Positions 13,973 to 56,900 of a stretch of DNA of 64,000 bases are shown one piece after another; within the stretch, counting starts at the first letter, position 1, and each line of letters begins with the position of its first letter. Origin of the DNA: Bacteroidales bacterium (GTDB lineage: Bacteria > Bacteroidota > Bacteroidia > Bacteroidales > UBA12077); the NCBI GenBank assembly GCA_028282585.1, contig JANQHR010000046.1, forward strand, positions 57,021-121,020, read 5' to 3'. The notes beneath the pieces are model-generated. The model made no database searches, was not told the origin of the DNA, and saw only the letters and a program-made list of their open reading frames with translations. Made by a program: the position numbers and the translations under genes.

Positions 13973-16900
13973 TTATATTCTTATTTCTTCAGCTCCTTCC
14001 TCTTCAATCAATTCATTATCCGATAGATTATTTATTTCTATATAGATTGCTTGGTCTTTAATAGTAGGACGAATAAAGATCTCATTAGCAGGAATTCTAA
14101 TATTAAAGTTCTTAAAAATCTCTGAAAGCAAGATATTTAATTTTAATGAGTGTCCTCCTAACTCAAAAAAATTATCTTCCGCACCTATTTTATCTGAATC
14201 AATTTTTAAAATATTTCCCCAAACTTTTGCCAATGTTTCTTCAATTAAACCTTCAGGTTTAACATAATTTTTGTTTTCATAATGAACAGAAATTTTAAAT
14301 AATTCTCTATCAACTTTTCCATTTTGATTTAGTGGTATCTCCTCTAATTGCTTATATGTTGATGGAATCATATAATGAGGCAAGCTTTGTGATAATAACA
14401 CTTTAATCTGAGGTAATGTTTCTTTTAGCTTTACATTATTTAATACCAAAAATGCTCTTAGGATCTTTTCTCCAAAGCTATCGTTAATTGCAACAACTAA
14501 AGCTTTTTCAACATCTTGGTGTTTTAGGATACAACTTTCAATCTCGCCTAATTCAATTCTAAAACCTCTAATTTTTACTTGATTATCTTCTCGCCCTTGA
14601 AATTCAATATTGGTATCATTTAATAATCTAACACGGTCGCCTGTTTTATACAATTTTTCATTTTTTACAAATGGATTTTCAATGAAGCTATCGTTTGTTA
14701 ATTCAACTTTATTTATGTAACCTATACCAACGCCTTCGCCTCCTATATATAAATCACCAATGGTGCCAAATGGAACCAAATTAAGTTTTTCATCTAAGAT
14801 ATAAATACTTGTGTTGCCAATTGGTCTTCCGATAGGTAAGCTTGAATAATCTTTATTAATTTTTTTAACCAACATTTCAATCGAAGTAACTGTTGTTTCA
14901 GTTGGGCCATATTCATTATAAAAATCATATTCCTTATTAAATTTCTCAGCTAATCCAACTCTACATACATCACCACCTGCAATAACTCTGTTAAAGTAAT
15001 ATTTTGATTCATTAAGTCCTTCTAAGAAAGAAGGAACAGCATGCAAATGAGTTATATTTTTTCTTAATAAGAACCTGGTAAATTCATCTTTATTCAAAAT
15101 AGATTCTTTACTAACTAAATTAAGATTTGCACCACTAAAGAATGCCAACCATATTTGTTCAACCGAAGCATCAAAACACACTGATGAAAACTGACAAATT
15201 TTCTCAGTACTATTTATTTTGAACTCATCTTTTTGGCTTTGTATTAAATTAACAACATTTCTATTATTTATCAGCACTCCTTTTGGTACACCGGAACTGC
15301 CTGAAGTGTATATGGTATATACTATATCTTCAGTACTACTTGATATATTTATATTCTCATTATCATAATCTTCCAGATTAATCTCATCAACTACAATAAC
15401 TTTTCTTTGAGCCACACCATTAGGAATACCATCTGTTTTTATGGCTAAACCTTCTATTTTTAGTAATGATTCAGTGTTAGGTAATATCCCATTATTAGCT
15501 ATGATCTCTTTTACTATCTCATAAAAAGTAACTTCCCCCTCACCCATACATACCATATCTATATTGGTATCATTTAATAAATCATCATAATTACTTGTTG
15601 CATATGGACCACCTGCTATAATTGGAGCTTCATATCCCCATAAGCGAATCAATGAAATCATTTTATGAAAGAAATCCTTATAAAAACTTAAAGTTCTAGT
15701 ACCAATAACATTAGGTTCAAACTCTTTAATTATTCGTTTTAATTCTAAATTACTATCAAAATCAACTCGAGATTTTATAATCTTGCATTCAACTTGTTTT
15801 CCTAGCTTGTTTTTAAGGTATGTTGAAATATACATTAATCCTAAAGGAGGCTCTACAACGTCATATAATATATCGCTATCGTTAGAATAAAACTGGGACA
15901 AATCAATGAGTAAAATTTTAAGCGCATCATTATTAGCTGGTTCTTCAGGCACAAAGATTTTCTTTATTTTTTCATTTAAATTATTTACATAAGAATAATC
16001 TTCATTTATAAAATTATAATCTTCCAGCTCTTCTATATTGATATTCACAAATTCCAGAAATTCTTGTAATGTATCTATTTTTACAGGTAAGTAACTTCGG
16101 TATTTTTGTAATAACTCATCTTCCGTAAGAACTTTCATTTGATATGGAAGAACTTTAAGAAGACGTTCCTTTAGCAAGAAATAATTATTTAAAAACTCTG
16201 TTTGATATATTAGTGTAAATTCATCTTCAAAAGGCAAAGTTTCAGGTAATTCGTGATAAGCTAAATTTATTGATCTATTGATTACATCTTTAGATATCCC
16301 ATTTTTTAATGCGATCTTTTCCATATCGGTATTCGGGTATATTTTTAATATGTGAACATATGGAAAGTGTAACCATTTAATACTTTTAATAAAATTTAAA
16401 GTGTCTAACGCTTCTGCTGTTGTTTCGCCAGGAAATCCATGCATAGTAAAAAGTTCAAGAATAACTTCAGGATACTTTGAACTAATATATTCTACATTCT
16501 CTTTAAATCGTTCAACATTTAAATTTTTTCCAATAAGTTTTTGTAATCTTTTCGATGTAGTTTCTAGAGCAAGTGCAAAACTAACTGTACCTGCCGCTAC
16601 CATTAAATCAATATATTCTTTGGTTAGAATATCTCCTCTTAACCCATTTGGAAAATACAGTTGTAGCTTTAAATTGTTATCGACAATTAATTGGAAAAAT
16701 CTTTTACTATTCTTTATATCTAAATTGAATATATCATCAACAATTACAAATCTTCGTACCCCGATTTCATAATAAAGCATTAATTCATTAAAAATATGCT
16801 CTGCTGATCTTGTAATATGACCTTTTGGCCATATTTTATGACAATATGCACATTTGTATGGACAACCTCTTGAACATTGTAATACTATACTATTTTTAAC

Positions 16901-19900
16901 CATTGCTTGTCCAATATGTTGATTATACTTTTCATAATCAACTAAAGATCTATTTGGAATCGGATGATTATCCAAATCTTCAATTTGCTTTCTTACAGAA
17001 CTTTTACAAATTTCCACAGGAGCATAATTATCTCCTTTTAATAAAGTAAATGATTTATCTTCTAAAGATTTATTGTCTGTTAATAAAATTGATGTCTGTG
17101 TATCATTTAGCACATTTCTAATTCTTTGGATTGGATACTCTGGTTCGATTGGTAAATATGCTGCTCCAGACTTTAAAACTCCTAAAATACTTATGATCTG
17201 ATTTAACGATCTATCTTGCATTACTCCTACAAAATGATTTTTTCGTATCCCTTTTTCATACAAATATCTTGATAATCGATTCGCACTATCATTTAGCTGC
17301 TTATATGTTATATTCTGATCATTTAAGGTAATGGCTGTTCTATTCTGATTCTTAACTACTGTTTCTTCAAATATATTTATTAGACTTTTGTCATCACTGA
17401 ATTTTCTATTTGTATTATTAATCTTATACAGTAATTCTTTCTTATCAGCCTCATCTAAGATATCTATTTCACTAATTAAGCCATCCGGATAAATACATAT
17501 TTGCTCTATTATACGTTTGTAATATTTTACAATTCTTTCAATTGTTTGGGGTGCAAATAAATTTGTATTATATTCCAATATTACCAGAATATCACTTCCT
17601 TTATCAATTGCATTCCACACCATGTCAAATTTTATTTCACCTTTTTCATGATCTATTAGATCAGCCTTAGGTAAAAACTCTGCCGAAACATATTCAGCAA
17701 TAGTCCAAGCAAACATGATATCAAAAACAGGATTTCTTCCTGCATTTCTTTCTACCGAAAGTTCTTCAATTAAATTTTCGAACTGGTAATCCTGATTCAC
17801 AAAAGCTGATATAGTAGATGATTTAATTTCTGATAAATACTCTTTTATAGTCTTATTTTTATCCGGATAACTTCTTATCGCTAGTGTATTAACAAAATTA
17901 CCTACAATGTTTTCTAAATCTACATGTCTTCTGCCAGCAACGGGAGTACCTACTATAATATCATTTTGATTACTTAATTTGGATAACAATATTTTTAGCG
18001 CAGCTAGCAACAACATATACAATGTCATATCCTGTTGCACAGCTATTTTTCTAACACCATTGGTATTTGCTTCACCTAAAAGAAATTTAACGGAAGCACC
18101 ATCAAATGTTTGTATTAAAGGTCTTTTATAATCTGTTGGTAATTGCAAAACAGGAAGTTCTCCTGAAAGAACATTTAACCAATAGCTCTCCTGCAATTTA
18201 GCCTTTTTAATTTGCTTATCGCTATTTTGCCAATCTGAGTAATCTTTATACTGCAATTTTAATTCGGGTAACTCTATTCCAGAGTATAAATTGATGAACT
18301 CCGACTCTAATATTTCTTGTGATATTCCATCACAAATTATATGATGCATATCTAAAAGTACCAGGTTTTCGTTATTTTCAGATTTTACAACAACTCCTCT
18401 TATTAACGGTGGTGAATTTAACTTAAATGGTTTTATAAAATCCTTCTTTATTTCATCAATATTTACCCTATTAAGATCCTTACAATCAATATATTGAACA
18501 TTAAAATCAACATTTTCATAAATCTTTTGCACCGGTTCTTCATTCAATAATTCAAACCCAGTGCGCAGTACTTCATGTCTTTTAATAATTTTTTTAAATA
18601 TTGATTCAATCCTCTGAATTTTAAAGTCACTATTCATTCTAAACTCCTGTGTCATATTGTATGTAATACTTTCAGGATTCATATTATGAATGATAAATAA
18701 CCTTTTTTGGGCAGATGACAGGGTGTAAAATTCTTTTTTATTTGTTCTATTTATGGAGTAATAATCTTCTTTCTTAGCTCTGGTTATCAACTCCACCTGA
18801 TTCTTAATTTTTTGATTTTCAAAAATATCACGAAGCGAGATACTTACACCAAATTTCTTTTGAATATTTGCTATTAAAACTGTAGCACTCAAGGAATGCC
18901 CTCCAAGTTCGAAGAAGGATTTTCTACTGCTAATTTCTTTCTGAGATATACCTAAAACTTCAGCCCATATATTGGCAAGTAACCTTTCTTTATAACTTAG
19001 TGCTTCATTTTGCTTTTCTTCAATAATTTTTGGTTCAGGTAAACGATTTCTATCAATTTTACCACTTGTCGTTATTGGTATTTTATTAATTCCCACAAAG
19101 TAATCCGGAATCATGTATTTGGGAAGACTTAACATTAGTTCTTCCTTGATATCATTTAAATTTGTTCTATCAAATATACCTTCTGCCTTGTGCGTAATCC
19201 ATACGGCAGTATCATAATACTCTCCGATATTTTTATCTATATTAATCTTTAATGGTGTATGTCCACCTTTAATTATATATATGTCTGAAGATGAAAATGT
19301 CTCTCCGGTCCATTTTTCCCAATCTTCAACAGTTGCTTTAATATATTGCGAATTTTCACAAAACCTAACAACTTCTCCACCCATTTTTTTATGTACTCTA
19401 AACCATGGATCAAATATATCACCTTTGTCATTTAATTTTTTGTAATAATTTTTCAGGTCTAGTAAAGGGAATTTAGACTTCAAAGCTGGTCTTACAGGAA
19501 TTAAAACTCTTTCATAATTAAAAGTTTTAGCAATATTTTGCATACATTTAATTATCTCATAACTTAATCCTACATTTCTGTATTTTTCACTCACAACTCC
19601 AACAAGAGTGAACAAAGTATTCGCATTGTTATTTGGTTCCAATCCCATTTCCAAAGCCCTACTCCAACTGGAAGGTAAATTGTTTTTTGTTTTATCCCAG
19701 TAAATCGGGATTGTATTTCCTGCAGCAACTAATTCTCCATTACTGCTTAAAATACCAAACTGAAATGAACTATATTCTTTATATAATCTTTTCCAGTATT
19801 TTTTTAAGTATATATCTTTCTTTAAAAAAATCGGCCATGTCGAAGCGTGTAATTGTTCAATGGAATCTTCCAGAGAAGGGCATTGCTCAACCGTGCTTAT

Positions 19901-22792
19901 ATAATACTTATTGTCCTTTAATGTGAATTCTTTTCCAATCTTTTGAACGTAGGTAATTAATTGCTCTATATTGTTAATTTCTCTTTTTACTACTAAACAT
20001 TTTTTTACATTTTGAAATTTATTGATAGCTAATTCTATCTCCTTAATCTCAATTCTTTGCCCCCTAATTTTAACCTGGTCATCTATACGACCTGCAAATT
20101 CAATATTTCCGTCCGGAAGCCATCTGGCTATATCTCCGGTTTTATATACTATTTTCGTATTATCAAGTATATTTACAAATTTTGCGTTAGTTAACTCCGG
20201 ATCATTTAAATATCCATCTGAAATCCCATCTCCAGTGATACATAGTTCTCCATATACTCCAATTGGCACAATCTGATCGTCCTTTAAAATATAGATTTGC
20301 GTATTTTCAATTGGCTTTCCAATTGGCACTTTGGTCTGATCTTTCTTAATCTGTTCTAATAAAAATTTAGTTGAAGTAATTGTAGTTTCCGTAGGTCCAT
20401 ACAAATTATATAATTTATATTCATTAAAATATTGTGTAGCTAATGCAATATCACATTCTTCTCCACCTACTATTAAGCGTTTAATCTCCTTACAACCATG
20501 TACATCGACACTTTTCAAATATGCAGGTACTGTATCTAAATGAGAAATAGAGTTTTTTATAATATATTTTTTAAACCTAAGAGGATCAAACAAAATTTCC
20601 TTTTCAACTAATACTAAACTAAGGCCATTTAAAATGGGTAATAGAATTTGCTCAATCGAAGCATCAAAGCTTGAATTAGAAAACTGAAGAATACGTTCAT
20701 CTTTTGAAAAACTAAACTCATTGGTTTGACTTAATATTAGGTTTATGATACTATTTTGTTTAACTATTACTCCTTTGGGATTACCTGTGGTACCTGATGT
20801 ATAAATAATGTAAGCATATTTATTTACTAATGGTGCTACATTTTTATAATTACTTGACTTTCCGGCAAGTTCTTTATTTATATGGATACTTTCTATCTCT
20901 AAATCATTAGTAAAATGATACCGATCAGCAATTAATAGAGACATTCCGGTATCTTTGATAATATATGAAACTCTCTTTTTAGGAAGCTCTGGATCAATTG
21001 GTACATAAACAAATCCAGATTTAAAAATTGCTAACATTGATATTACTAATTCGGCTGATCTTTCGACCTTTACACCAATTACACCTTCTTTAACTTTAGT
21101 TTTACTATTAATAATATAAGATAAATTAGCCACTAAAGAATGTAATTTTTTAAATGTAATATATTCGTCATTTAATATCAGGGCAATACGATCCGGATAC
21201 TTTTTACATTCATTTTCAAACAACTGATATATACCTTCCTTTTCATATTCGGTTTGTTTAGAACAATTAAACTCATATAATATCTTGCGCTTTTCTTTTT
21301 TTCCTAACAAATTTATTTGTGATATAAATTTGTTCAAATCCATTAATTGATTTATTATGTTTTTAAAATAACTAATATATCGTTCTATTGTCTTAGGGGT
21401 AAAAAGATTAGTTTTATATTCGATATTAATTAGTATTTGTTCGTTTAAATCAAATACAGTAAATGTAATGTCAAATGGAGCAGTAGTTTGCTCGTGTATA
21501 TATTTATCTTCACTAACAATTTTGGATACTTCTATGTCATAATCCTTTTGATTAAGAACATTCAGCATAACATTAAACAAGGGATTTCTAGTTGTTTCTC
21601 TATGATCTGTAACTTTCTCAACCAGATGTTCAAATTGGTATTCTTTATTATCGAAAGCATTAATTACGTTTATTTTTACTTGTTCAATAAATTCATTTAA
21701 TGAAAATTCATTCGGTATTTTATTCCTTATAGCCAGCGTGTTAATAAAATTCCCTACAACCGTTTCAAAGTCTACATGATCCCTTGTAATAACCGGAGTT
21801 CCGATTACAATATCATTTTGACCGGACAGTTTTGCAAGTAAGATATTAAAAATGGATAACATACTCATAAATAGAGTAATTTCCTTTTCTTGAATTATAT
21901 TCTTAATAATTCCGGTTTCATTTTGATCTAAACTAAAGAAAACTTTTGCTCCGCCTTGAGAGTCTTGAAGATTGTATGAAAAGTCATATGGTAATATTAA
22001 TTCTTCAGGCGCTACATTAAACCTTTTTAACCAATAATTTTCTTGCTTTTTTATTTCTTGTTGGTACTCCGCAGTACTCTGCCATTTCGCGAAATCCTTA
22101 TATTGAATTTTTAAAGGTTTTAATGAATTTTTATTTAAAAGGTTAAAAAAATCATTTATTAAGATATTGTTTGTTACTCCATCGCTTATAATATGATGCA
22201 TATCTATAAAAAGAATAGAGTCCAAATCTTCGATTCTAAATATGGTAGCTCTTAAAAGTGGTGCTTTTGATAAATTAAATGTTACTGTATTTTCCTTTTT
22301 AATATTTTCTACTTCATCAAATGTTATATATTTTTCTTTGACTTCAAACTCTAATTCATTATGAATTAGTTGCACAATTTCGTTATTGATTATTCTAAAA
22401 CTTGTTTTTAAGCTTTCGTGATGTGATATAAGATCTTTAAAAATATCTTCTATATCAGATGTCTTTAATTTACCCGAAACATTAAAAGTTGCAGGCATAT
22501 TCTGTGATGTACTCTCTGAATTAATTTGTTGAATTAAAAACATTCGCTTCTGAGCTGAAGAGACAGGATAGTATTCTCTTTTTTCAACGTTCTTTATATT
22601 AAAATCATTAGCTTTTTCCTTAACATCGTTTAAAAACAAAATGATTTCTCTTTTATGTTTTTTAAGTTCTAAGAGTAAATCATCGGTTAATATATTATCA
22701 CCTTTAATAAATAAATCCAGTTCACCTGATGGAGAAACTGACATATTTATTCCATGTTTTTTAAGTTTTGAAATTATATCTAGTACACTCAT
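13973..22792 (-). CDS. Two-module NRPS: docking-C-A[GNAT insert]-T-C-A[radical SAM/B12 insert]-T
   Basis: C sites HHIISDG and HHIICDG, two A domains and two GGHSL T domains. A1 code about DAEDIGLITK and A2 about DAEHIGEVTK (both Lys/Arg/Orn-like). CPYKCAYC at 16841-16864 lies inside A2. Confidence 0.92.
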   Translation of the reverse strand: MSVLDIISKLKKHGINMSVSPSGELDLFIKGDNILTDDLLLELKKHKREIILFLNDVKEKANDFNIKNVEKREYYPVSSAQKRMFLIQQINSESTSQNMPATFNVSGKLKTSDIEDIFKDLISHHESLKTSFRIINNEIVQLIHNELEFEVKEKYITFDEVENIKKENTVTFNLSKAPLLRATIFRIEDLDSILFIDMHHIISDGVTNNILINDFFNLLNKNSLKPLKIQYKDFAKWQSTAEYQQEIKKQENYWLKRFNVAPEELILPYDFSYNLQDSQGGAKVFFSLDQNETGIIKNIIQEKEITLFMSMLSIFNILLAKLSGQNDIVIGTPVITRDHVDFETVVGNFINTLAIRNKIPNEFSLNEFIEQVKINVINAFDNKEYQFEHLVEKVTDHRETTRNPLFNVMLNVLNQKDYDIEVSKIVSEDKYIHEQTTAPFDITFTVFDLNEQILINIEYKTNLFTPKTIERYISYFKNIINQLMDLNKFISQINLLGKKEKRKILYEFNCSKQTEYEKEGIYQLFENECKKYPDRIALILNDEYITFKKLHSLVANLSYIINSKTKVKEGVIGVKVERSAELVISMLAIFKSGFVYVPIDPELPKKRVSYIIKDTGMSLLIADRYHFTNDLEIESIHINKELAGKSSNYKNVAPLVNKYAYIIYTSGTTGNPKGVIVKQNSIINLILSQTNEFSFSKDERILQFSNSSFDASIEQILLPILNGLSLVLVEKEILFDPLRFKKYIIKNSISHLDTVPAYLKSVDVHGCKEIKRLIVGGEECDIALATQYFNEYKLYNLYGPTETTITSTKFLLEQIKKDQTKVPIGKPIENTQIYILKDDQIVPIGVYGELCITGDGISDGYLNDPELTNAKFVNILDNTKIVYKTGDIARWLPDGNIEFAGRIDDQVKIRGQRIEIKEIELAINKFQNVKKCLVVKREINNIEQLITYVQKIGKEFTLKDNKYYISTVEQCPSLEDSIEQLHASTWPIFLKKDIYLKKYWKRLYKEYSSFQFGILSSNGELVAAGNTIPIYWDKTKNNLPSSWSRALEMGLEPNNNANTLFTLVGVVSEKYRNVGLSYEIIKCMQNIAKTFNYERVLIPVRPALKSKFPLLDLKNYYKKLNDKGDIFDPWFRVHKKMGGEVVRFCENSQYIKATVEDWEKWTGETFSSSDIYIIKGGHTPLKINIDKNIGEYYDTAVWITHKAEGIFDRTNLNDIKEELMLSLPKYMIPDYFVGINKIPITTSGKIDRNRLPEPKIIEEKQNEALSYKERLLANIWAEVLGISQKEISSRKSFFELGGHSLSATVLIANIQKKFGVSISLRDIFENQKIKNQVELITRAKKEDYYSINRTNKKEFYTLSSAQKRLFIIHNMNPESITYNMTQEFRMNSDFKIQRIESIFKKIIKRHEVLRTGFELLNEEPVQKIYENVDFNVQYIDCKDLNRVNIDEIKKDFIKPFKLNSPPLIRGVVVKSENNENLVLLDMHHIICDGISQEILESEFINLYSGIELPELKLQYKDYSDWQNSDKQIKKAKLQESYWLNVLSGELPVLQLPTDYKRPLIQTFDGASVKFLLGEANTNGVRKIAVQQDMTLYMLLLAALKILLSKLSNQNDIIVGTPVAGRRHVDLENIVGNFVNTLAIRSYPDKNKTIKEYLSEIKSSTISAFVNQDYQFENLIEELSVERNAGRNPVFDIMFAWTIAEYVSAEFLPKADLIDHEKGEIKFDMVWNAIDKGSDILVILEYNTNLFAPQTIERIVKYYKRIIEQICIYPDGLISEIDILDEADKKELLYKINNTNRKFSDDKSLINIFEETVVKNQNRTAITLNDQNITYKQLNDSANRLSRYLYEKGIRKNHFVGVMQDRSLNQIISILGVLKSGAAYLPIEPEYPIQRIRNVLNDTQTSILLTDNKSLEDKSFTLLKGDNYAPVEICKSSVRKQIEDLDNHPIPNRSLVDYEKYNQHIGQAMVKNSIVLQCSRGCPYKCAYCHKIWPKGHITRSAEHIFNELMLYYEIGVRRFVIVDDIFNLDIKNSKRFFQLIVDNNLKLQLYFPNGLRGDILTKEYIDLMVAAGTVSFALALETTSKRLQKLIGKNLNVERFKENVEYISSKYPEVILELFTMHGFPGETTAEALDTLNFIKSIKWLHFPYVHILKIYPNTDMEKIALKNGISKDVINRSINLAYHELPETLPFEDEFTLIYQTEFLNNYFLLKERLLKVLPYQMKVLTEDELLQKYRSYLPVKIDTLQEFLEFVNINIEELEDYNFINEDYSYVNNLNEKIKKIFVPEEPANNDALKILLIDLSQFYSNDSDILYDVVEPPLGLMYISTYLKNKLGKQVECKIIKSRVDFDSNLELKRIIKEFEPNVIGTRTLSFYKDFFHKMISLIRLWGYEAPIIAGGPYATSNYDDLLNDTNIDMVCMGEGEVTFYEIVKEIIANNGILPNTESLLKIEGLAIKTDGIPNGVAQRKVIVVDEINLEDYDNENINISSSTEDIVYTIYTSGSSGVPKGVLINNRNVVNLIQSQKDEFKINSTEKICQFSSVCFDASVEQIWLAFFSGANLNLVSKESILNKDEFTRFLLRKNITHLHAVPSFLEGLNESKYYFNRVIAGGDVCRVGLAEKFNKEYDFYNEYGPTETTVTSIEMLVKKINKDYSSLPIGRPIGNTSIYILDEKLNLVPFGTIGDLYIGGEGVGIGYINKVELTNDSFIENPFVKNEKLYKTGDRVRLLNDTNIEFQGREDNQVKIRGFRIELGEIESCILKHQDVEKALVVAINDSFGEKILRAFLVLNNVKLKETLPQIKVLLSQSLPHYMIPSTYKQLEEIPLNQNGKVDRELFKISVHYENKNYVKPEGLIEETLAKVWGNILKIDSDKIGAEDNFFELGGHSLKLNILLSEIFKNFNIRIPANEIFIRPTIKDQAIYIEINNLSDNELIEEEGAEEIRI
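15410..17070 (-). other. Inserted radical SAM plus cobalamin-binding didomain (permuted order) within A domain 2
   Basis: Lies between A2 (LKSGAAYLPI) and A3 (YTSGSSGVPKG). Contains DLDNHPIPNRSL, SRGCPYKCAYC and VDDIFN, then KILLIDLS, EPPLGLMY, IIAGGPYAT and MGEGE. Boundaries approximate. Confidence 0.88.
19190..19915 (-). other. GNAT-fold acyltransferase-like domain inserted between A8 and A9 of A domain 1
   Basis: About 240 aa extra between GRIDDQVKIRGQRIE and LPKYMIP. Contains acyl-CoA-binding-like VSEKYRNVGLS plus IPVRP, DPWFRVHKKMGG and WEKWTG, as in a family of free-standing GNAT proteins. Confidence 0.7.
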
Positions 22793-25903: not shown

Positions 25904-28900
25904 TTAGATTGTAATTTTCTTACCAGCTGACATTTCTTCCTCTACCAAACCTACATTCTTAATCATATCGATTAGTACCGCAATTTTTCGAATGGTAGTA
26001 GCAACGAATATATCAGAAATAAGTATTTTAATATCAAAGGTGTTATTTATTTGATTTATAAGAATATTTGCTTTTACGGAATGTCCGCCAAGTTCAAAGA
26101 AATCAGCATCAATACTAATCTTATTATCAGAAATACCTAATATATTGGACCATATTGTAACCAGTTGAGCTTCTAACTCTGTTGTAGGTGGTATATATTC
26201 AATTGTATCTTCAATATTTATCTCTGGCAATGCAGTTTTATCAACCTTTCCATTTTTGTTTAAAGAAATATTTTCAATTTCTTTGAAATACTGAGGAATC
26301 ATGTACTCAGGAATAACATCTTTTAATTCCTCCTTTATATCATTTGAATCTATTTCATAATCTGTAACATAGTAAGCACATAAATATTGCATGTTTAAAT
26401 TATCCGTTTTTACAATTACAATAGCATCTGATATACGATCCAGTGATTTTAAAACAGACTCGATTTCTCCTAATTCAATACGATAACCTCTAATTTTAAC
26501 CTGAAAATCATTTCTACCGATAAATTCTAAACTGCCATTTGGTAACATTCGAGCTAAATCTCCTGTTTTATATAGTTTTTCATTATCAACAAAAGGATTT
26601 TTAATATAACATGTATTAGTTAATATCAGATTATTCAAATAACCTTCCGTTATACATTCTCCACCTATATATAATTCACCAACCATACCTTTTGGTAAAG
26701 GATTTAAATCCTCATTTAAAATGTAAACTTTAGTATTTGGAAATGGATTACCAATTGGAACATTGGTGTTCTTATCTGTTTCAGTATTATATTTATGGAT
26801 AATACACCCTACAGTAGCCTCAGTTGGGCCATACTCATTAAATATTTCTATCCTATTGGCAAATAAATCAATTATATTATGTGCCAATTGTGTTTCTAGT
26901 TGTTCTCCTCCTATTACTATTGTTTTTACTCTACTCTTATTGATTATATCACTCAAACCTTGATTGTCTCTAATAAGCTTTAAATGTGAAGGCGTTAATT
27001 TAATTACATCCACTTTATTATCCGATAGTACTTTCTCAATATCCGCTTCTTCGTAAATTACTAATTTACTACCATTTATCAAAGGAGTAAAAATTGATGT
27101 GATGGTTAAATCAAAAGTCAATGATGTATATAACGGGAAATTAGATTCCTTTTGTTTACAATAAAACTTATTAGCACTCCAAATGTAATTAACCAAGTTC
27201 TTATGATTAACCAAAACTCCTTTGGGATTTCCTGTAGTTCCTGATGTATAAATGCAATAAGCGATATTATACGTAAATCCCTCGGGTAAGTTTTCTTTAT
27301 AGCTTAAAAGCTTTTCGTTATTTAAATTTTCATAAAAATCATTTATCTCAAAAATCTTTATTTTACTATAACTATCCTTATTAAAAGCAATTCCAGGAAT
27401 TTCAATTAACTGCTTTTCTGTAGGGAAACTTCCCTTATTTTCAAGGATTGTTGAAACTACCTGTGCAAAGGTCTTCTCACCTTCTCCAAAAACAACCAAA
27501 TCAACGTTTAAGTTTTTAAGTACTTCATCATAATTACTAGTTGGATAAGGACCTCCTGCGATTAATATCCCTTTATAATATTTCCTAATATTTTCAACTG
27601 TTTCGTTAAAATATAGTTTATAATAAACTAAGGACCTACAACCTACAATATCCGGTTTGAATTCTTCAATTATTTCTTGCAATTCAGAATGACTATCAAA
27701 ATCAACCCGTGATTTTATAATTTTACAATTAACTTTATTATTAAATTCTTTATTAATGTATGTTGCCAGATACATTAAGCCCAATGGAGGCTCAATTACA
27801 TCATAAATATCCTGAGAATCTTTTGAAAAATATAATGATAAATCTATTAAAAGTATTTTAAGTCTATCATTGGATTTAACATCATGTGAAAAATGAGCTT
27901 TAATTTTTGAGTTTAAGTCAATTGTTTTATTACTTTCAGAATTATTCTCATCTAATTCTATTTCATCTTTAAGTCCTATAAAATTCAATAATTCTTCAAA
28001 TGTGCTAATATTAACAGGTAGATAACTGTTATATTTTTGAACTAATTCATCTTTCGTTAATACCTTTAATTGATATGGCAATACTTTTTTAAGTCTCTCT
28101 TTAGAAAGAAAGTATTCATTAAGAAATATTGATTGATACTTTTTTGTAAATGATTCATTAAACGGCAAAGTTAAAGGTAATGCATGATGAGGAAGATGTT
28201 CTGACATTGAAATAGATTTCTCAGAAATACCATTTTCCAATGCCATTTTATGCATATCTGTATTTTTATAAATCTTTAAAATATTGATATAAGGAAAATG
28301 TATCCATTTAATACTTTGAATAAAATTTAATGTCATTAGAGCTTCCTCTTCTGTTTCAGTTGGGAATCCATGCATTGTCATTAGTTCAATAATAACCTGA
28401 GGATAGGTTTTACTAATATATTCAAGATTATCTTTTAATTTTTGTAAATCAATATTTTTATTTATAAGCTTTTGTAATCGTGGAGACGCGGTTTCAAGAG
28501 CTAAAGCAAAATTTACAACACCTGCTTTTACCATCAAATCAATGTACTCTTTAGTTAAGATATCTCCTCTTAATCCGTTAGGGAAAAAAAAGTTTACTTT
28601 TAATCCATTTTCAATAATCAGTTCAAAAAATCGCTTACTGTTTTGAACATTTAAATTAAAAATATCATCAACAAATGAGAATCTTTTAATTCCCATTTTA
28701 TAGTAAAGATTAACTTCTTCGAATATATTATCAGCAGATCTAAATACATGCTTTTTAGACCAAACTTTATGACAATATGCACATTTAAAAGGACAACCTC
28801 TGGTTGCTTGAATTGAAATGCTATTTTTCACCATAGCTTGTCCTATATATTGAGTATAATAGTTATAATCAACTAAAGAACGGTTAGGCATAGGTAAAGA

Positions 28901-30850
28901 ATCAAATTCTTTAATTGGATCTCTATTTATTGTTTTTACAATATTATCGGTATCAAGAATATTCTGAATTTTTCTCTCTCGAATTATTTTCTTCGAAGCT
29001 ATAATCAATGATAATTGAGAATCAGTTACAATAGTACGAAGTCTTTTTTCAGGTATATCGGTATCCAAGGGTAAATAAACACAGTTTAGTTTAAGTATTC
29101 CCAGTATTGCAACTATTGTATCGATTGATCGTTCCATCATAACACCGACCATCTCACCTTCGTTGATATTTTTATATTTAAGAAATGCAGCAAATTTATC
29201 TGACACTTCTCCAAGTTCTTTATATGTCAGAGTTTCTTTATGCATTTGCAATGCTATATCGGAAGGAGTTTCTTCTACCTGATTATTAAATAAATCAATA
29301 ATGGTCTTATCGTAGGGAAAATACGATTTTGTTCGGTTAAGGTCAAAAACTATCCGTTCTTTTTCTTCAGAAGTAAGCAGATCAACCTGTCCTAAAGTCA
29401 ACTCATCATCTCGAACAATCTGATTAGAAAGATTTTTAAAGAAACTCCCAAATCTATCAATAGTATCTGAATTAAATAAATCAGTTGAATATTCAAAGTT
29501 TAATAAGATTTGGTTACCGTAATCATACACATTTAGTCTTAAATCAAACTTAGAGTGTCCCTTTATATGGTTGTTTATTGTATTATGATCAGATTTTTTA
29601 ATTTCAGTTTCTTTGGTATTTTGTAAAGCAAATACAACATCAAATAAGGGATTTCTATTGGTATTTTTTGTTATGGTTAATTTATCTAACAACTCCTCCA
29701 GAGGATACTCTTGGTTTTCAAAGGCTTCCACTGTTAAAGTCTTGATTTCTTTAAGGTAATCTTTAATCTTCTTATTTCCATCCGGGAAACTTCTTAAAGC
29801 CATTGTATTAACAAACATTCCAACAACTCCCGCAAAATCAACATGAGGTCTGGCTTCATTTGTAGTTCCAATAATAATATCATTTTGTCCGGATATCTTT
29901 GACAATAGTATCTTAAATGTTGCTAACATTATCATGTATAATGTTAATCCATTTCTTGATATATATGCCTTTACATTTTGAGTTTCACCTATCGATAGTG
30001 CATAGGAAACCGTAGCTCCTTCGAAATTTATATTCGCGCTGCGAGAATAATCAGTTGGCAGGTCTAATGAAGGTAATTCGCCAGCTAATTTTTGTAACCA
30101 ATATTTCTCACTTTGGAGCTTCTTATCATGTTGCTGTTTACTTTTTCGCCATTCAGAAAAGTCAGTATATTGCAAATTACGTGAAGCCAATTTTTTCCCT
30201 TCATACAATTTTATAAAATCTTCAGTTAGTATTGAGTGTGATATACCATCGCAAATGATGTGGTGCATATCAATAAACAAAAGTGATCTGTTCGTATTTG
30301 TTTTTATCAAACTACTTCTAACTAATGGAGCTTTATCCATTTCAAAAGGTTTTAATAAAGTATGCTGAATATTATTAATTTCTTCTTCTTGAATATATAA
30401 CTCGTTCAAAGTAAAATTGATATTTTCATTAATTATTTGAACTATGGAATCACCCACCATTCTGTAAGATGACCTTAAAATATCGTGATGATTAATCAGA
30501 ATTGAAAATAATTCTTCGATTTTATCCTTGTCAAGGCCATCAGGTAATGGAATGAAAAAGGGCATATTATATGCAACATTATTAGATAACTGTTGCAATA
30601 AATACATTCTGGTTTGCGGAGAAGTTAATGAATAATATTCCTTTTTTTCACTTTTTTTTATATTAGCAAATGAATTTTGCCTATTATACTTAACTAGAAA
30701 TTCAATTAATTCTTTCTTATTATCTCTAATTAATTCTATTAACTCCTTCGTTATTTTTTCCTTATCACCTTTCAGTTTTATTTGATTTTCACTTAATCCA
30801 ATTTTAATTCCTTTCTGATTGAGGTGATCTACCAGTTCGAAGATATTCAT
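25904..30850 (-). CDS. NRPS module: docking-C-A(Asn)[radical SAM/B12 insert]-T
   Basis: C HHIICDG. A code about DLTKVGEVGK (Asn). CPFKCAYC at 28772-28795 lies between A2 and A3 (YTSGTTGNPKG). T FFELGGHSV. Confidence 0.92.
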   Translation of the reverse strand: MNIFELVDHLNQKGIKIGLSENQIKLKGDKEKITKELIELIRDNKKELIEFLVKYNRQNSFANIKKSEKKEYYSLTSPQTRMYLLQQLSNNVAYNMPFFIPLPDGLDKDKIEELFSILINHHDILRSSYRMVGDSIVQIINENINFTLNELYIQEEEINNIQHTLLKPFEMDKAPLVRSSLIKTNTNRSLLFIDMHHIICDGISHSILTEDFIKLYEGKKLASRNLQYTDFSEWRKSKQQHDKKLQSEKYWLQKLAGELPSLDLPTDYSRSANINFEGATVSYALSIGETQNVKAYISRNGLTLYMIMLATFKILLSKISGQNDIIIGTTNEARPHVDFAGVVGMFVNTMALRSFPDGNKKIKDYLKEIKTLTVEAFENQEYPLEELLDKLTITKNTNRNPLFDVVFALQNTKETEIKKSDHNTINNHIKGHSKFDLRLNVYDYGNQILLNFEYSTDLFNSDTIDRFGSFFKNLSNQIVRDDELTLGQVDLLTSEEKERIVFDLNRTKSYFPYDKTIIDLFNNQVEETPSDIALQMHKETLTYKELGEVSDKFAAFLKYKNINEGEMVGVMMERSIDTIVAILGILKLNCVYLPLDTDIPEKRLRTIVTDSQLSLIIASKKIIRERKIQNILDTDNIVKTINRDPIKEFDSLPMPNRSLVDYNYYTQYIGQAMVKNSISIQATRGCPFKCAYCHKVWSKKHVFRSADNIFEEVNLYYKMGIKRFSFVDDIFNLNVQNSKRFFELIIENGLKVNFFFPNGLRGDILTKEYIDLMVKAGVVNFALALETASPRLQKLINKNIDLQKLKDNLEYISKTYPQVIIELMTMHGFPTETEEEALMTLNFIQSIKWIHFPYINILKIYKNTDMHKMALENGISEKSISMSEHLPHHALPLTLPFNESFTKKYQSIFLNEYFLSKERLKKVLPYQLKVLTKDELVQKYNSYLPVNISTFEELLNFIGLKDEIELDENNSESNKTIDLNSKIKAHFSHDVKSNDRLKILLIDLSLYFSKDSQDIYDVIEPPLGLMYLATYINKEFNNKVNCKIIKSRVDFDSHSELQEIIEEFKPDIVGCRSLVYYKLYFNETVENIRKYYKGILIAGGPYPTSNYDEVLKNLNVDLVVFGEGEKTFAQVVSTILENKGSFPTEKQLIEIPGIAFNKDSYSKIKIFEINDFYENLNNEKLLSYKENLPEGFTYNIAYCIYTSGTTGNPKGVLVNHKNLVNYIWSANKFYCKQKESNFPLYTSLTFDLTITSIFTPLINGSKLVIYEEADIEKVLSDNKVDVIKLTPSHLKLIRDNQGLSDIINKSRVKTIVIGGEQLETQLAHNIIDLFANRIEIFNEYGPTEATVGCIIHKYNTETDKNTNVPIGNPFPNTKVYILNEDLNPLPKGMVGELYIGGECITEGYLNNLILTNTCYIKNPFVDNEKLYKTGDLARMLPNGSLEFIGRNDFQVKIRGYRIELGEIESVLKSLDRISDAIVIVKTDNLNMQYLCAYYVTDYEIDSNDIKEELKDVIPEYMIPQYFKEIENISLNKNGKVDKTALPEINIEDTIEYIPPTTELEAQLVTIWSNILGISDNKISIDADFFELGGHSVKANILINQINNTFDIKILISDIFVATTIRKIAVLIDMIKNVGLVEEEMSAGKKITI
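27370..28980 (-). other. Inserted radical SAM plus cobalamin-binding didomain (permuted order) within the Asn A domain
   Basis: EFDSLPMPNRSL, TRGCPFKCAYC and FFPNGLRGD, then KILLIDLS, EPPLGLMY, LIAGGPYPT, FGEGE and IPGIAF. Boundaries approximate. Confidence 0.88.
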
Positions 30851-31006: not shown

Positions 31007-34000
31007 TTAAATAATAATTTCAACTTCCTCATTAACTTCATCGTCTTCTTCAATATTTTGGAGTAATTGAATCAGTTTTGAAATTGTTTTTATGTTAGGG
31101 TTTTCAAAGAAATCTCCAAGTCGGATTTCTATATTGAATTCTTTATATATCATTGAAGTAATTTGAATTGCATTTAAGCTATGTCCTCCAATTTCAAAAA
31201 AGTCGTCGTATATGCCTATTTTATCAAGTGCAAGAACTTCTTCCCAAATTTTAGTTAATTTTTTTTCTACATTGGTTTGTGGTTCGACATAGCTATTACT
31301 TTCAAGCTTAAAGTCTTTTAAATTTGCCAACTGCCTCCTGTCAGCCTTTCCATTTGTATTTAATGGTATTTTATCCAGTTGAATAAAAAAAGTTGGAACC
31401 ATGTAAGCTGGTAATTTTTTTGAGATTTCCGATATAATAACACTGGTGTCTATTTTATTTTTATTCGATACAGTATAAGCCACCAGTTTTTTATTTCCCG
31501 AGTTATCATCTATTGCTATTACAACACTTTCTTTAATATCATCCAATTGATTAAGTACCGATTCTATTTCTCCCAGTTCAACTCTAAATCCTCGTATTTT
31601 TATTTGATCATCTATTCTACCCAAAAATTCTATATCGCCACTTGGAAGCCATCTTGCTATGTCGCCAGTTTTATAAATTCTAACTGCATCCTTAGGGTTA
31701 TCTTTTTCAGAATAAATTTTACCACGTTCTTTATTCCATATTATAAATTTATCTTTTGTCAGAGAATTATTCTGATAATACCCTCGTGCTAAACCGACAC
31801 CACCTATATGTAATTCTCCGGGGATACCAACAGGTTGTAATTTGTGGTTATTATTTAAAATAAAAAGATTAATATTATCAATAGGTTTACCGATTGGAAT
31901 TGTATCTACTTTTTCATCCCTGGTGCAATTATAATATGAAACGTCAACTGTCGCCTCGGTAGGACCATAAAGGTTTACTAAATTAACTTTTAAGTTTTTA
32001 AATAATTCATTAAAAAATAAAACACTATTTGCCGATAAGGCTTCACCACTAGCAAATACCTGTATTAAACTTTTTAGATTGTCTACGTCTACATTATGAT
32101 CCTTAATATACTGTAAAAAAACATTTAACATAGAAGGCACAAAATGTATTTTTGTTACTTCTTTTTTAGTTATTGTCTCAATTATTCTATTTGGATCTTT
32201 TTCTTCATTTTTGTCTAATAAAACCAATGATGCCCCATAAAAACTCCACCAAAATAGTTCCCATACTGAAACATCAAAACCTATTGAAGTCTTTTGAATC
32301 AAAATATCCGTTGGAGAAGCATTATATTTTTTTTGCATCCAGTTAATTCTGTTTATTACAGAATGATGTTCTATCATAACTCCTTTAGGTTTTCCTGTAG
32401 AACCCGATGTATAAATAACATATGCTATATTGTTGGAGTTAGCCTGATTAAATTCTTTTAATCCAGGTTTTTCATAAGAAAAACTATCTATGAATATCAA
32501 ATCTGTACCCGTTTCTTCGAACTTATCCTTTAAATGAATTTTTGTTATAACAAGGTTACATCCACTATCTGATAGCATTATTGATATTCTTTCATCAGGA
32601 TAATCTGGAATAATAGGTAAATAAGCAGCTCCTGACTTTAAGATTCCATAAATACAGATCATCATTTCTATTGATCTATCCATACTAACTCCTACTAGCT
32701 TTTCAGGCCCAATTCCACAATGTCGAAGATATTCTGCTAATTCATTTGCTTTAGCATTTAATTCTTTATATGTTATTCTTTCATCTTTATAGATTAAAGC
32801 AATCTTATTAGGAGTTTTTAAAACCTGCTCTTCAAATAAATAATGGATACATTTCTCTTTAGGATAATTAACTTTTGTATTGTTGAAATTACCTAAAATC
32901 TGACCCTTTTCTTCTTTTGTCAATATATCCAGTTCATTTATAATAATATCTTTATTCTCAACTACACTTGTAACTATCTTGTTAAAATGCTTTAATATTC
33001 TTTTAACCGTATCTCTATAAAATAAATCGGTATCGTAAATTATAGAAAGTTTTATTTCATTATTATTATGATGAAATATGAAATCCAAATCAAATGTACT
33101 TTTTATATTATTGCTGCTGTTTTTAAAAGGTTTCAAACTTAAATGATTGCTATTACTTGTTTCATTTTCATAAACAAAATCTCGATCACTATTATATAAT
33201 ACAATTACATCAAAAAATGCAGATCCTACCGAATTTCTTTCTGTAGATAATTCCTCAACTAATTTACTAAATGGATATTCCTGGTGATTATATGCTTCTT
33301 GAGTATTATCTCTAACACTATTTAAAAATTGCTCAAAAGTTTTATTTCGATCAACTTTATTTCTTAAAGTCAACATATTTACATAATATCCAATTTGATC
33401 TCTTAAATTATAATTTTGTCTACCTGATACAGGAGTTCCAATTATTATATCATTTTGGTCTGTATATTTATAAAGTAATATTTTCACTAATGAAAGTAGT
33501 GTCATAAATGGAGTAGAATAATTGCTTTTACTGATATCAAGTAAACTATCCACCTGGTATTTGGATAGAGTCAGGCTTACAAGATCTGCTCCATGTGATT
33601 TGCTTTTTGTCCTACTTTTATCGGTTGGAATATTTAAAGATGGCAGTTTACCTCCAAGTATTTTATGCCAATATTCTTTGTGTTTTCTATAAATATCCGA
33701 GTTTACTATATTATTTTGCCAGGCACTGTAATCTTTATACTGAATTGTTAATGGTTCAACTAGTACTTTTTCATTATTTATTCGAGAATTGTATAGATTT
33801 AATGCATCTTTACCAAATACATACATTGACCATCCATCGCTTATAATGTGATGCATTGCGTAAACAAAGACATATTTCTTTTCTTCAATCTTAATCAGAT
33901 AGCTTCTTAACAAAGGTCCTTTGTATAAATCAAATCTTTTTGTTTTAGCTTCTTTTATTAATTCATTTACTTTCTTTTCTGTAGAAGCTTCTTTACTAAA

Positions 34001-39579: not shown

Positions 39580-39623
39580 AATAAGAGTTATTAAATTATT
39601 TAAGGGATTACTGTAAATGTTCA

Positions 39624-53933: not shown

Positions 53934-56900
53934 TTAATTATTCAAAAAGCTATTTTTCATAAAATCTTTTCCTTCTTCTAAAGTTTCGAAATTATTCACA
54001 GTAGTATTTTCTTCACTCTGTTCAGATTCCAAATGATCTGTTAATCCTTTTATAGTGGTATACGTAAATAAGGTTGTAATAGGAATTTCTTTGTCGAGTA
54101 ACTCGTTTAGTTTAGTATTCACTAAAATTAAACTTAAAGAGCTTCCTCCGAGATCAAAGAAATTATCATTTACACCTATTCTATTTAGTTTTAAAACTTC
54201 TTTCCAAATTGCTTCAACCGACTTCTCCATTTTGCTTTCAGGTGCAACATATGTTGTCCCTGTCATGGCCCTATCTTTTTGCGGTGCAGGAAGTGATTTA
54301 AAGTCAATTTTACCACTAATTGTCAACGGAATAGAAGGAATCTCTGTGAAATATGAAGGTACCATATATTCAGGTAATGATTCTAATAGAAATTCTCTTA
54401 AGGTATTTGAATTAACATTTTCTGAAAAACCATTCACCGGAATGAAATAAGCTGCAATATATTTCTCATCATCTCTAATATTTACTTTTTCGCTCACCCC
54501 CAGCCTTCTTAAAAAGTTACCATATGCCTTTTCGGAGACCTTACAATTTAAATCTTCTTCAACGTTCTCAAGGGATAAGTGATCTAGTCTTTTTTCCCAA
54601 CTTGTTGCTGAACCATAATAATGAAATCCATGATCTTTCATAAAACCATAATCTCCAATTTCTTTTATAGCACAGTTTGTTGAATAAACTGCAAAGTCTT
54701 TTTTCTTTTTCCAGTATGAGTCTTGTTTATTTAAATAGGTTATTAAATCCTCATTTTTAATATCACAAAACCTATAAAAATCCAGAAACCTCACTTTATC
54801 ATGTATTCTACCGTCCGTTACTACATCTATATCAACTAAGTCAAATATTTTACTATCAATCTTTGGAGTATTCTTTTGCATATTTAATATTTCCTTTTCA
54901 ATTAACTGATTATCCATATTTTCAGATTTCATGAAAATATTAAGTTTGTTTTCAATTATTTGACCCCTTGAAAGTGTAGCTCCAATAACAACTTTAATAT
55001 CGTGTTTGTAAGCATACTCAGCAGCAAGCGAACTTGATACATGAAAACATCCCCTACATACAGTCGAAAAGGATTTCATACTTTCTTTAAGTATAATATC
55101 AGATATATCGTGCTTTAAAATGATATTTTCAACACCCAACGATGATGTTACATATTTTATATTCTTAATATCTGATTTAGAAAAGTAACCATTGTCATAT
55201 GTTAAAGTTAATACCTTCAAACCCATTTTAACCAGTTGATATAAAGCATAACCTGCTCCCCGTCCTCCTGCATAAAGTAAAATACAATCATATTTACTTT
55301 CTTTATCTTTATTTTGCTCTTTTACAAAAGTTTGAAGATCATCTAAAGATTTAAAATATTCATTAATGACTTTACTATTTTTTTCCAAGGAATTACACTG
55401 GTTACAGATATTACTGTCATCTATCTTAATCTCTGGATAAGTAGAATTAATTCCGCATTTTTTACAATATTTTAATTCCGGTTTATCATCCTTTGGCGAC
55501 CTAACCATTAAAACACAGTCCTTAATATTCTGATGTTTTTGTAAAGCATTCTTTATTTCTCCAAGTTCAATTCTATATCCTCTAACCTTAACCTGTTCGT
55601 CTTTTCTTCCTTTAATTTCAATATTCCCATCTATTAACCTTCTACCAATATCTCCGGTTTTATAAAGTTTCCCTTCTCCAAATGGATTATCAATAAATAC
55701 TTCATTTGTTTTTTTCCAATTATTAATATATCCTCTTGCAATACTATCTCCTGCTATACAAATCTCACCATAATAACCAAGTGGTTTTTGTTGTAAATCG
55801 TCCGAAAGAATATATACTTGATTATTTGCAACATTATTGCCAATAGGAATTATTTCTCGAGTATCATCTTTCTTTAAAGGATAAAATGTATTATTAATAG
55901 TACCTTCTGTTGGACCATAAGTATTAACAACCCTACCTTCCAAATAATTATGGAAATTTCTAACAACATTGGCAGCAACAGGTTCAGCTCCTATAAACAG
56001 GAGTGGTATTTTAATTTTAATATCATTTTCATAGGAATCTAAAATATGGGTAATAGCAGTAAACATAGATGCTGTGCAGTACATCTTTGTAATTTCAGTA
56101 GCTTTTGACAGAAGTTTTATTAAATGGTTAGCATCTTTACTTATTATGTCATTAATGACTTTTACTTTAGCACCTTTGTACAATGGCCAAAATACTTCGA
56201 AAACTGACGGATCGAATGTAAGATTTGTACGTTGTGCCATTACATCAGTTTCTAACATCCCAAATTCCTTATCCATCCAGAATACACAATTATTTACTTG
56301 TTTGTGTTCCACCATTACACCTTTTGGCACTCCTGTTGATCCTGATGTGTACATAACAAAAGCCAAATCACTACCATTGGTGGGTATATCCAAATTCGAA
56401 GATGGTTTATCTTTTAATTGATCAACCATTTGATCAATAATTATAATATTCCTGGTATCCAGCACATTTTTTTGTAATATTTTTTTATATACAATTCCAT
56501 TTATAGACTCTAGTTGCCTAGTATCAGGAATATTAAAGTCATTCTTAAAAAATTCCTTAAGTAATTCTTCAAAAGTATATTCTCCTTCACCAAGTACAGC
56601 TAAATCAACATTTTCATCTTTTAGAATAGTATCGTAATCACTTGATGCATACGGCCCACCTACAATTAATGGAACCTTTATTCCCCAATTTCTAATAATA
56701 GAAACTGTTTGGTGAAAAAAGTCTCTGTAAAAAGTCAAAGTTCTTATTCCAATTAGATCTGGATTAAACTCTTTTACCAAGGTTTGCAACTCCTGGTAAT
56801 TATCAAAATCAACACCTGCCTTATATATAAGCCCATCGATCTTATCCTTGAATTTCTTTTTAAGATATGTCAATAAGTATACTAAACCAATAGGTTGTTC

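Follow-up and report, generated by a model that had tools for sequence, protein, structure and literature searches.

How a radical enzyme with a B12-binding domain comes to lie inside an adenylation domain, with its own domains in reversed order, is the question raised by a biosynthetic gene cluster of a Bacteroidales bacterium (GTDB lineage Bacteroidota; Bacteroidia; Bacteroidales; UBA12077; GenBank assembly GCA_028282585.1, contig JANQHR010000046.1). The window, meaning here the whole stretch of 64,000 nucleotides that was analyzed (contig positions 57,021 to 121,020, forward strand), holds one hybrid nonribosomal peptide synthetase (NRPS) and polyketide synthase cluster with approximately 29% G+C. 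Its large open reading frames (ORFs) all lie on the minus strand, as do all window features located below. In three of its NRPS proteins, adenylation motifs A2 and A3 are separated by a unit of about 520 residues, as defined by alignment with the uninterrupted adenylation (A) domains of the same cluster. We consider it probable, at roughly 0.8, that each insert is a complete class B-type radical S-adenosylmethionine (SAM) enzyme, circularly permuted and nested within an A domain.

Domain order and probable rotation of the nested units

The first insert lies in the NRPS gene P0001 (1648 residues; 25904..30850), for which the ORF list and Pfam indicate a docking domain, a condensation (C) domain, an interrupted A domain and a peptidyl carrier protein domain. 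Pfam assigned Condensation to residues 70-500, AMP-binding to two separate stretches and PP-binding to residues 1562-1624. Radical_SAM (PF04055) matched residues 681-844 (82.5 bits, cut-off 29.5) and B12-binding (PF02310) residues 1020-1131 (46.5 bits, cut-off 32.1), which places the radical SAM domain ahead of the B12-binding domain and both of them within the A domain. According to the envelope of a family hidden Markov model (HMM), the unit spans P0001 residues 638-1159 (27374..28939), in agreement with the interval 27370-28980 given in a first-pass annotation made from the sequence alone. On one side of it, alignment with uninterrupted A domains delimits an N-terminal host piece of approximately residues 505-637 (28940..29338), with an A2-like motif at 29063-29095. 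On the other, the C-terminal host piece (26171..27373) was matched by AMP-binding at residues 1194-1405 and AMP-binding_C at 1462-1535, and the motifs that we take to be A3 (27218-27250) to A10 are readable in it.

Insert 2 occupies residues 1929-2452 in the second module of ORF 13973-22792 (15437..17008), and insert 3 occupies residues 401-918 of ORF 53934-59234 (56481..58034). Both were delimited by Pfam, alignment and the family HMM, and they are 59% and 51% identical to insert 1, respectively. The same succession of domains recurs in each, with Radical_SAM at 1973-2135 (64.8 bits) followed by B12-binding at 2314-2426 (39.5 bits) in insert 2, and Radical_SAM at 443-607 (67.5 bits) followed by B12-binding at 779-892 (47.5 bits) in insert 3. 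All of these matches exceed the Pfam cut-offs, and AMP-binding is split into two stretches around the unit in all three hosts. The order of the unit, namely radical SAM, helical domain and B12-binding domain, is the reverse of that of canonical class B enzymes. This reversal holds for 3/3 inserts and for 270/270 units of the wider family, which become collinear with the canonical order of B12 before radical SAM only once rotated. Among the 61 aligned family members, no variation occurs in the cluster cysteines or in the GGP and GEGE motifs.

In the first-pass annotation, the inserts were described as beginning with the second half of the linker that joins the B12 and radical SAM domains of canonical enzymes, and as ending with its first half. 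Both halves were found as described. The inserts start with RDPIKEFDSLPMPNRSL (P0001 643-659), RKQIEDLDNHPIPNRSL and RGHIKEFEDLPIPNRSL, and they end with IPGIAF (P0001 1151-1156; 27383..27400), IEGLAIK and INGIVYK. In insert 1, the second linker half consists of NIVKTIN, aligned as the second strand of a hairpin, together with RDPIKEFDSLPMPNRSL (28874..28945). It is followed by the radical SAM core (28319..28810), with CxxxCxxC at 28772-28795, and then by a variable connector (P0001 959-995; 27866..27976) that would link the helical domain of the ancestral C-terminus with the former N-terminus. The B12-binding domain (27458..27793), with PPLGL, GGP and GEGE, comes next, after its first strand, KILLIDLS (P0001 998-1005; 27836..27859). 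This first strand of the B12 Rossmann domain, N-terminal in canonical proteins, is internal here as had been stated, but the third insert reads RILLLDLS instead. The observation of three inserts with reversed domain order is confirmed.

The gene with which the inserts had originally been compared, the free-standing P0002 (24217..25875), does have the canonical order, with B12 at residues 129-191 and radical SAM at 265-425, but the linker motif quoted for it is lacking. P0002 was rejected as a close model of the linker after a BLASTP comparison: only its radical SAM core aligned to the insert, at 25% identity, and its B12 part gave no BLASTP match. Because P0002 is too distant, other canonical paralogues and families were used for comparison.

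A profile of 61 family members (alignment A3) was used both in its native form and with its columns rotated at the connector. In HMMER searches of nine canonical-order ORFs from the source genome, the native profile matched canonical paralogues as two domains in reversed order, whereas the rotated profile gave a single collinear domain in L005/L095 (100.2 bits), L004 (63.8), L097 (59.6, against native pieces of 18.0 and 26.3) and L094 (43.5, against 19.8 and 12.4). P0002 and L006 still yielded separate domains under the rotated profile, now correctly ordered, and only the radical SAM part of L007 and L098 was matched.

Comparison by hhalign with a canonical family of 43 sequences related to L097 (A4) gave a corresponding result. 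The native profile aligned as two reversed pieces (query 23-272 with template 207-448, and query 392-538 with template 52-192), whereas the rotated profile aligned as one match (query 39-447 with template 52-448 of 466 columns; 380 aligned, probability 99.3, E-value 2.2e-20). The C-terminal helical domain is itself collinear with the canonical C-terminus, up to the same template column 448. Against the P0002 family (41 sequences), two reversed native matches were replaced by one of 308 columns (E-value 9.1e-21); a cut within the connector gave the longest collinear match, and control rotations at residue 200, in the radical SAM part, or residue 450, in the B12 part, gave shorter ones. Two canonical NCBIfam profiles were also compared. 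In KedN5, positions 17-155 correspond to the C-terminal part of the unit and positions 149-366 to the N-terminal part of a free-standing family member; in rSAM_ocin_1, a C-methyltransferase model for peptides made by the ribosome and modified after translation, the corresponding intervals are 118-213 and 221-436. The unit's start thus matches approximately the position at which its end stops. Swapping the halves in silico turned two reversed pieces into one collinear match with two canonical families, with no failure of the re-permuted profile to align, and the circular-permutation reading put forward in the first-pass annotation is supported.

The position of the break can be placed more precisely. 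In the rotated-profile alignments, canonical proteins run unbroken through GEGE, a helix, IPG, a strand, a short turn, a second strand, an arginine-rich stretch of the LD..P.PDR type and the cluster motif. The AlphaFold model of a canonical paralogue (predicted local distance difference test score, pLDDT, 88.1; predicted template modelling score, pTM, 0.89) has a hairpin directly after IPG, formed by residues 165-168 (IINK), the turn NG and residues 171-174 (KLHK). The C-terminal IPG-IAFN of the unit aligns to the first hairpin strand and the N-terminal IVK to the second, and the AlphaFold model of the unit shows both end segments as strands (E525-528 and E8-10); this model covers 546 residues, is compact and reaches a pLDDT of 90.1 and the same pTM of 0.89. 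The ancestral N-terminal strand, residues 2-7 in the canonical model, is the internal strand E368-374 of the unit model; residues 2-148 of the canonical L094 align to insert residues 364-510. The connector that precedes this strand is poorly conserved and is modelled with lower confidence (pLDDT 70-88). These alignments and models support an opening of the chain at the hairpin turn inside the linker, which refines the earlier proposal of an opening at the B12/radical SAM linker. Since a cut in a hairpin turn is expected to leave the new ends side by side, the ends of the unit should be adjacent in space. The ancestral enzyme would have consisted of the B12 domain, the hairpin linker, the radical SAM barrel and the C-terminal helical domain. 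The rotated chain would run from the second hairpin strand through the radical SAM barrel, the helical domain, a new connector, variable and about 35 residues long, and the B12 domain to the first hairpin strand.

The unit shares its parts with the class B structures of TokK (7kdx), TsrM (6wte), MgmA (9ccb), CysS (9n1b) and the B12-less AprD4 (6fd2), namely a B12 Rossmann domain, a CxxxCxxC barrel and a C-terminal helical domain, and TokK residues 65-139 of the B12 domain align to unit residues 436-509. Unlike these structures, the unit has its order rotated, its old ends joined by a connector and its whole chain nested in another enzyme. Sequence searches of the Protein Data Bank (PDB) with the unit gave partial matches only, and the best folds found by Foldseek in the PDB (AprD4, MgmA, RimO, MiaB and TsrM) included none that was collinear over the full length, with a best template modelling (TM) score by query of 0.42; such partial coverage is expected of a permutant. 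Mmp10 resembles the unit in having its radical SAM part first and its cobalamin-binding part last. It was rejected as a model, its Foldseek matches (7qbu, 7qbt and 7qbv) having root-mean-square deviations of 13-15 Å and TM scores by query of about 0.31, and its cobalamin domain is, we assume, not a PF02310 Rossmann domain, so that its arrangement differs from that of the unit.

Spread of the family and origin of the nesting

A search of 1.84 billion proteins returned 31,647 matches at an E-value of at most 1e-3 and 1,063 cluster representatives at an E-value of at most 1e-30. The 150 best matches all lie in proteins of 725-7,548 residues and are all collinear with the whole unit; one is 98% identical to it and the other 149 are 49-60% identical. 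With one genome taken per species, relatives are encoded in at least 387 of the 599 candidate stretches. The 78 best loci are spread over Aminicenantes, Bacteroidales, Clostridia and other Bacillota, Acidobacteriota, Chloroflexota, Omnitrophota, SAR324, Planctomycetales and Elusimicrobia; the closest is a Bacteroidales metagenome-assembled genome (98%), and the cultured Paenibacillus tepidiphilus and Desulfosediminicola flagellatus are among them. Judged by HMM envelope, the 80 units at these loci comprise 68 that are embedded, 10 that are ambiguous owing to contig ends or short flanks and 2 that are free-standing. Across all collected proteins, the 270 units comprise 153 embedded, 86 free-standing and 31 ambiguous ones. 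In the embedded units, 45-56 residues (median 48) separate the A2-like motif from the start of the unit where that motif was found (112/153), and 35-79 residues (median 44) separate the end of the unit from A3 (motif found in 126/153).

Free-standing proteins with radical SAM ahead of B12, which the first-pass annotation had suggested looking for, do exist and occur in NRPS clusters. A search among proteins of 300-956 residues recovered many free-standing permuted proteins, of approximately 535-585 residues, whose cluster motif lies close to the N-terminus and whose GEGE lies close to the C-terminus; their permuted order was judged by motif positions and HMM envelopes, since the precomputed Pfam listing of the search puts PF04055 ahead of PF02310 even for proteins of canonical order. 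At one locus (L030), NRPS genes whose A domains are uninterrupted flank a tandem pair of such genes, and at another (L128), one lies in an NRPS cluster beside two canonical-order genes.

Three further forms were observed. About half of the free-standing permuted proteins (among them P0153, P0155, P0159-P0162, P0208 and P0211) carry a conserved acidic tail of the F-N-D-D-L-E-N-E type at the extreme C-terminus, approximately 35-40 residues past the last strand. This tail may be a docking peptide for an NRPS partner; as an idea only, it resembles what we take to be the junction motif between C and A domains of NRPSs, at the start of the A domain. A comparison with 124 embedded flanks, in which the tail was considered as a remnant of the A-domain strand that follows the insert, was unconvincing. 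A class of about 724 residues (including P0154, P0157, P0172, P0059, P0174 and P0169) comprises a 140-residue A-domain N-terminal piece, the permuted unit and a 62-residue tail, without A3 to A10; from its sequence, it looks like the remnant of an interrupted A domain no longer able to adenylate. At locus L025, an interrupted A domain is split over two genes (ORFs 4765-7845 and 7906-10425 of that locus), the first of which stops 79 residues past the unit and the next of which begins at position 237 of the AMP-binding profile.

Canonical-order units are fused to other domains in a different manner. Among 120 long relatives of P0002, the canonical unit is N-terminal in 119, where a Condensation-type region or an entire module comes after it, and C-terminal in 1; a nested canonical-order unit was found in none of the 120, and every nested unit found is permuted. 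This contrast, a correlation drawn from one canonical family, matches the prediction that permutation enabled fusion. Adjacent ends would let the whole enzyme nest in the A2-A3 surface loop with both A-domain halves intact. Fusions of an N-terminal canonical-order B12/radical SAM unit to a Condensation-type region were seen in a large family, P0392-P0510 (approximately 1000-1250 residues; Pyrinomonadaceae, Blastocatellia, Chloroflexota and others), and among those listed the catalytic-histidine motif pattern had no match in the Condensation-type region.

To place the free-standing and embedded forms relative to each other, trees were built with FastTree (LG+gamma) on the rotated match columns, using six canonical paralogues as the outgroup and omitting L095 (a duplicate of L005), the weak matches L007 and L098, and 11 duplicate locus rows. 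The permuted family forms one clade in both trees, with supports of 0.97 and 0.96. Its first two branches consist entirely of free-standing proteins without acidic tail or A-domain remnant, 6 sequences and then 2, with node supports of 0.92/0.74 in the tree of 276 tips and 0.91/0.85 in that of 345 tips. Such basal free-standing branches fit a permutation that came first and an A-domain capture that came later, and it is most likely that the permuted enzyme arose as a free-standing protein and was later captured by an A domain. The 724-residue class, with its A-domain remnant, indicates that releases from NRPS genes probably also occurred. That the permutation enabled the fusion, as the first-pass annotation had thought probable, is supported by the existence and early branching of free-standing permutants and by the end-to-end fusion of canonical-order units.

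Likely function and competing explanations

Nine pocket residues were extracted from 122 interrupted A domains, at approximate positions set by motif anchors that we take to follow GrsA numbering. At least 57 different specificity codes were obtained. The commonest were DFWNIGMVH (24), DAWFLGNVV (10) and DGFFLGVVY (6), presumably codes for threonine, leucine and isoleucine, and the whole set would, on the assignments we assume, point to Thr, Leu, Ile, Asx, Glx, Pro, Val and Lys. The three interrupted A domains of the window gave DLTKVGEVG, which we take to be asparagine-like, DAEHIGEVT and DPFYFGTIN. So many codes imply that the guest is not bound to one side chain, and they would fit a chemistry directed at a position that many residues share, such as the beta carbon. 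Using motifs assumed to mark the downstream domain types, we found the next domain in 78 scorable modules to be of C type in 51, of epimerisation type in 10 (with 1 more possible) and other or none in 16; the remaining modules were too short to score (47) or lacked a carrier motif at the expected place (28).

The invariant cluster cysteines, GGP and GEGE make the unit look active. In the mechanism that we propose, the host A domain would first load an amino acid on the neighbouring carrier domain, and the nested enzyme would then C-methylate the tethered residue in a radical, cobalamin-dependent reaction. In known interrupted A domains, according to a 2024 review, the guest methyltransferase acts only once the substrate is loaded on the thiolation domain (PMC11355689). 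By analogy, the unit would be the radical counterpart of the methyltransferase domains in interrupted A domains, and on-line radical C-methylation of a tethered residue is probably its role.

Comparison with known systems brings out both the precedent and the novelty. As in TioN and MarQ, which have a methyltransferase between a2 and a3, a complete tailoring enzyme lies between the same core motifs and both A-domain halves are kept; the guests known so far, however, are ordinary SAM methyltransferases, oxidases or ketoreductases, whereas here the guest, about 520 residues long, is a radical enzyme of the iron-sulfur, B12 type. A 2020 catalogue distinguishes seven families of interrupted A domains, with methyltransferase guests at a2-a3, a6-a7 and a8-a9, and the words radical, B12 and cobalamin have no occurrence in its main text (PMC8341866). 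The 2024 review names methyltransferase, oxidase and ketoreductase guests, and radical and cobalamin have no occurrence in its available text (PMC11355689). DscE of the discodermin pathway is, like the unit, a B12-type radical SAM enzyme of an NRPS cluster, and the cluster of the window likewise has free-standing canonical genes of this kind. It is a free-standing cobalamin radical SAM enzyme that methylates a peptide valine in vitro, and the available description sets it apart from the unit as a separate protein that acts on the released peptide and is not described as permuted or nested (PMC12858407). No NCBIfam model reaches its cut-off for the unit and none names the family, and the ESM Atlas gives only generic names for it. 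In the searchable literature, from which subscription journals and supplements are largely absent, neither a permuted class B enzyme nor an A domain that encloses a radical SAM enzyme was found to be described. We tentatively propose, at a little less than an even chance, that these proteins represent a class of interrupted A domains that is phylogenetically broad and has not been described before. In it, unactivated carbons of many kinds of carrier-tethered residues would be methylated, while the chain is being assembled, by a circularly permuted cobalamin radical SAM enzyme, and permutation at the hairpin turn would have made the nesting possible.

A number of points weigh against the overall explanation preferred here. 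The hhalign identity to the canonical families is only 21-22%; the single rotated match scores below the sum of the two native matches (157.9 vs 165.4 for A4, 166.8 vs 180.1 for the P0002 family), and joining the ends adds score only in HMMER and for two paralogues only. Tandem-duplicate intermediates, another suggestion of the first-pass annotation, did not turn up: in a small test, none of the six long proteins checked contained two units. The packing of the B12 domain on the barrel and the proximity of the ends are read from pTM and secondary structure only. As for the order of events, the root of the trees rests on very distant, long-branch outgroups, the trees sample the best-scoring matches only, and the acidic-tailed free-standing forms are scattered in 19 separate clades among embedded units, which implies that losses, gains or poor resolution are involved. 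The 57 or more host codes imply no single side-chain chemistry, and the nearest models include BchE and AprD4, class B enzymes that are not methylases.

These last points bear on the rival explanation to which we give most weight, which is that the nested enzyme is not a C-methyltransferase at all and either catalyzes another radical reaction (epimerisation, a hydroxylation-type rearrangement, dehydration or cross-linking) or has lost cobalamin binding, as in AprD4. AprD4, the best PDB match, is a diol dehydratase; BchE, the best NCBIfam model at 107.1 bits against a cut-off of 481.35, is a cyclase; and 57 codes among 122 hosts would also fit a reaction at the backbone or at the alpha or beta carbon. 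Against this, most characterized class B enzymes are methylases. A loss of cobalamin binding is also difficult to reconcile with a B12-binding domain that exceeds the Pfam cut-off in 3/3 inserts and with the invariance of GGP and GEGE, and the presence of an epimerisation-type domain after the carrier in at least 10 of the 78 scored modules shows that the unit is no simple substitute for epimerisation. That a cobalamin radical SAM methylase acts on a nonribosomal peptide is, moreover, documented in the available account of DscE (PMC12858407). On balance, we regard a non-methylating role as unlikely, though it deserves to be taken seriously, and retain C-methylation as the probable function.

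A second explanation concerns the direction of evolution: the permutation would have arisen inside an NRPS as a consequence of nesting, and all free-standing permuted proteins would be later excisions. Many free-standing proteins do nest among embedded clades, and the common-ancestor clade of the acidic-tailed forms, which themselves fall into 19 separate pure clades, also contains 81 embedded units. The 140 A-domain residues at the N-terminus of the 724-residue class appear remnant-like, and the split form at L025 points the same way. Yet the first two branches of both rooted trees are free-standing and bear neither tail nor A-domain remnant, and a rearrangement in place is harder to picture for a canonical enzyme whose ends lie at opposite places and which was found in end-to-end fusions only (120/120). 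We therefore consider excision as the general origin of the free-standing forms improbable, and prefer a free-standing permutant that was later captured.

Independent shuffling of a radical SAM piece and a B12 piece, possibly from different parents, could also reverse the order, given that recombination can produce either arrangement in two-domain proteins, that no tandem-duplicate intermediate was found in the six long proteins and that end-joining brings no hhalign score above the two separate matches; it is nonetheless very improbable, because both halves of one hairpin are retained, one at each end, the lengths fit (30 canonical residues of L097 span 34 profile positions at the junction), both halves have the same canonical paralogues as best partners (L097, L005 and L094), the C-terminal helical domain is also collinear, and a poorly conserved connector precedes the ancestral N-terminal strand, as expected of joined old ends.

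Neighbouring features and implications

Several other features of the cluster were recorded. Between a carrier domain and the condensation domain that follows it, the NRPS ORF 31007-38203 contains a glycosyltransferase of the GT4 type (Glyco_trans_1_4, Glycos_transf_1 and Glyco_transf_4; residues 887-1198, window 34610-35545). The third interrupted A domain, in ORF 53934-59234, is doubly interrupted, with approximately 330 extra residues between A8 and A9 (54495-55502) that contain two CxxC pairs and match QueC/PP-loop weakly (E-value 0.021, below the cut-off). The first A domain of ORF 13973-22792 has approximately 280 extra residues between A8 and A9 (19163-20020), the sole match being a weak one to Acetyltransf_15 (E-value 0.016, below the cut-off); these residues may be another unnamed guest domain. 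Two further radical SAM genes lie at 38296-39624 and 3351-4319, one of the MiaB/UPF0004 methylthiotransferase type and the other with a weak Radical_SAM match below the cut-off. Upstream of the window on the same contig, free-standing canonical-order B12/radical SAM genes, L004 (553 residues), L006 (575 residues) and L094 (608 residues), adjoin more NRPS genes, which indicates that the cluster reaches past the window and is unusually rich in B12/radical SAM enzymes.

What looks new here is twofold, namely a class B enzyme in permuted form and, for interrupted A domains, a further class of guest, in an arrangement that is common in uncultured bacteria. Present tools would miss such modules, since NCBIfam has no model named for the family and the only guests listed in reviews of interrupted A domains are methyltransferases, oxidases and ketoreductases. 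The two cultured hosts, at loci L021 (Paenibacillus tepidiphilus) and L068, make the family directly testable, and the arrangement offers engineering a ready-made design for placing a large cofactor-dependent enzyme within an assembly-line domain. For the study of enzyme evolution, the family would provide a clean natural case in which circular permutation alters how a protein combines with others. For natural product research, hundreds of NRPS modules, mostly from uncultured anaerobes, are flagged as probably making radically modified residues. If our reading is true, NRPS assembly lines would gain the polytheonamide-type chemistry that has so far been tied to ribosomal peptides.

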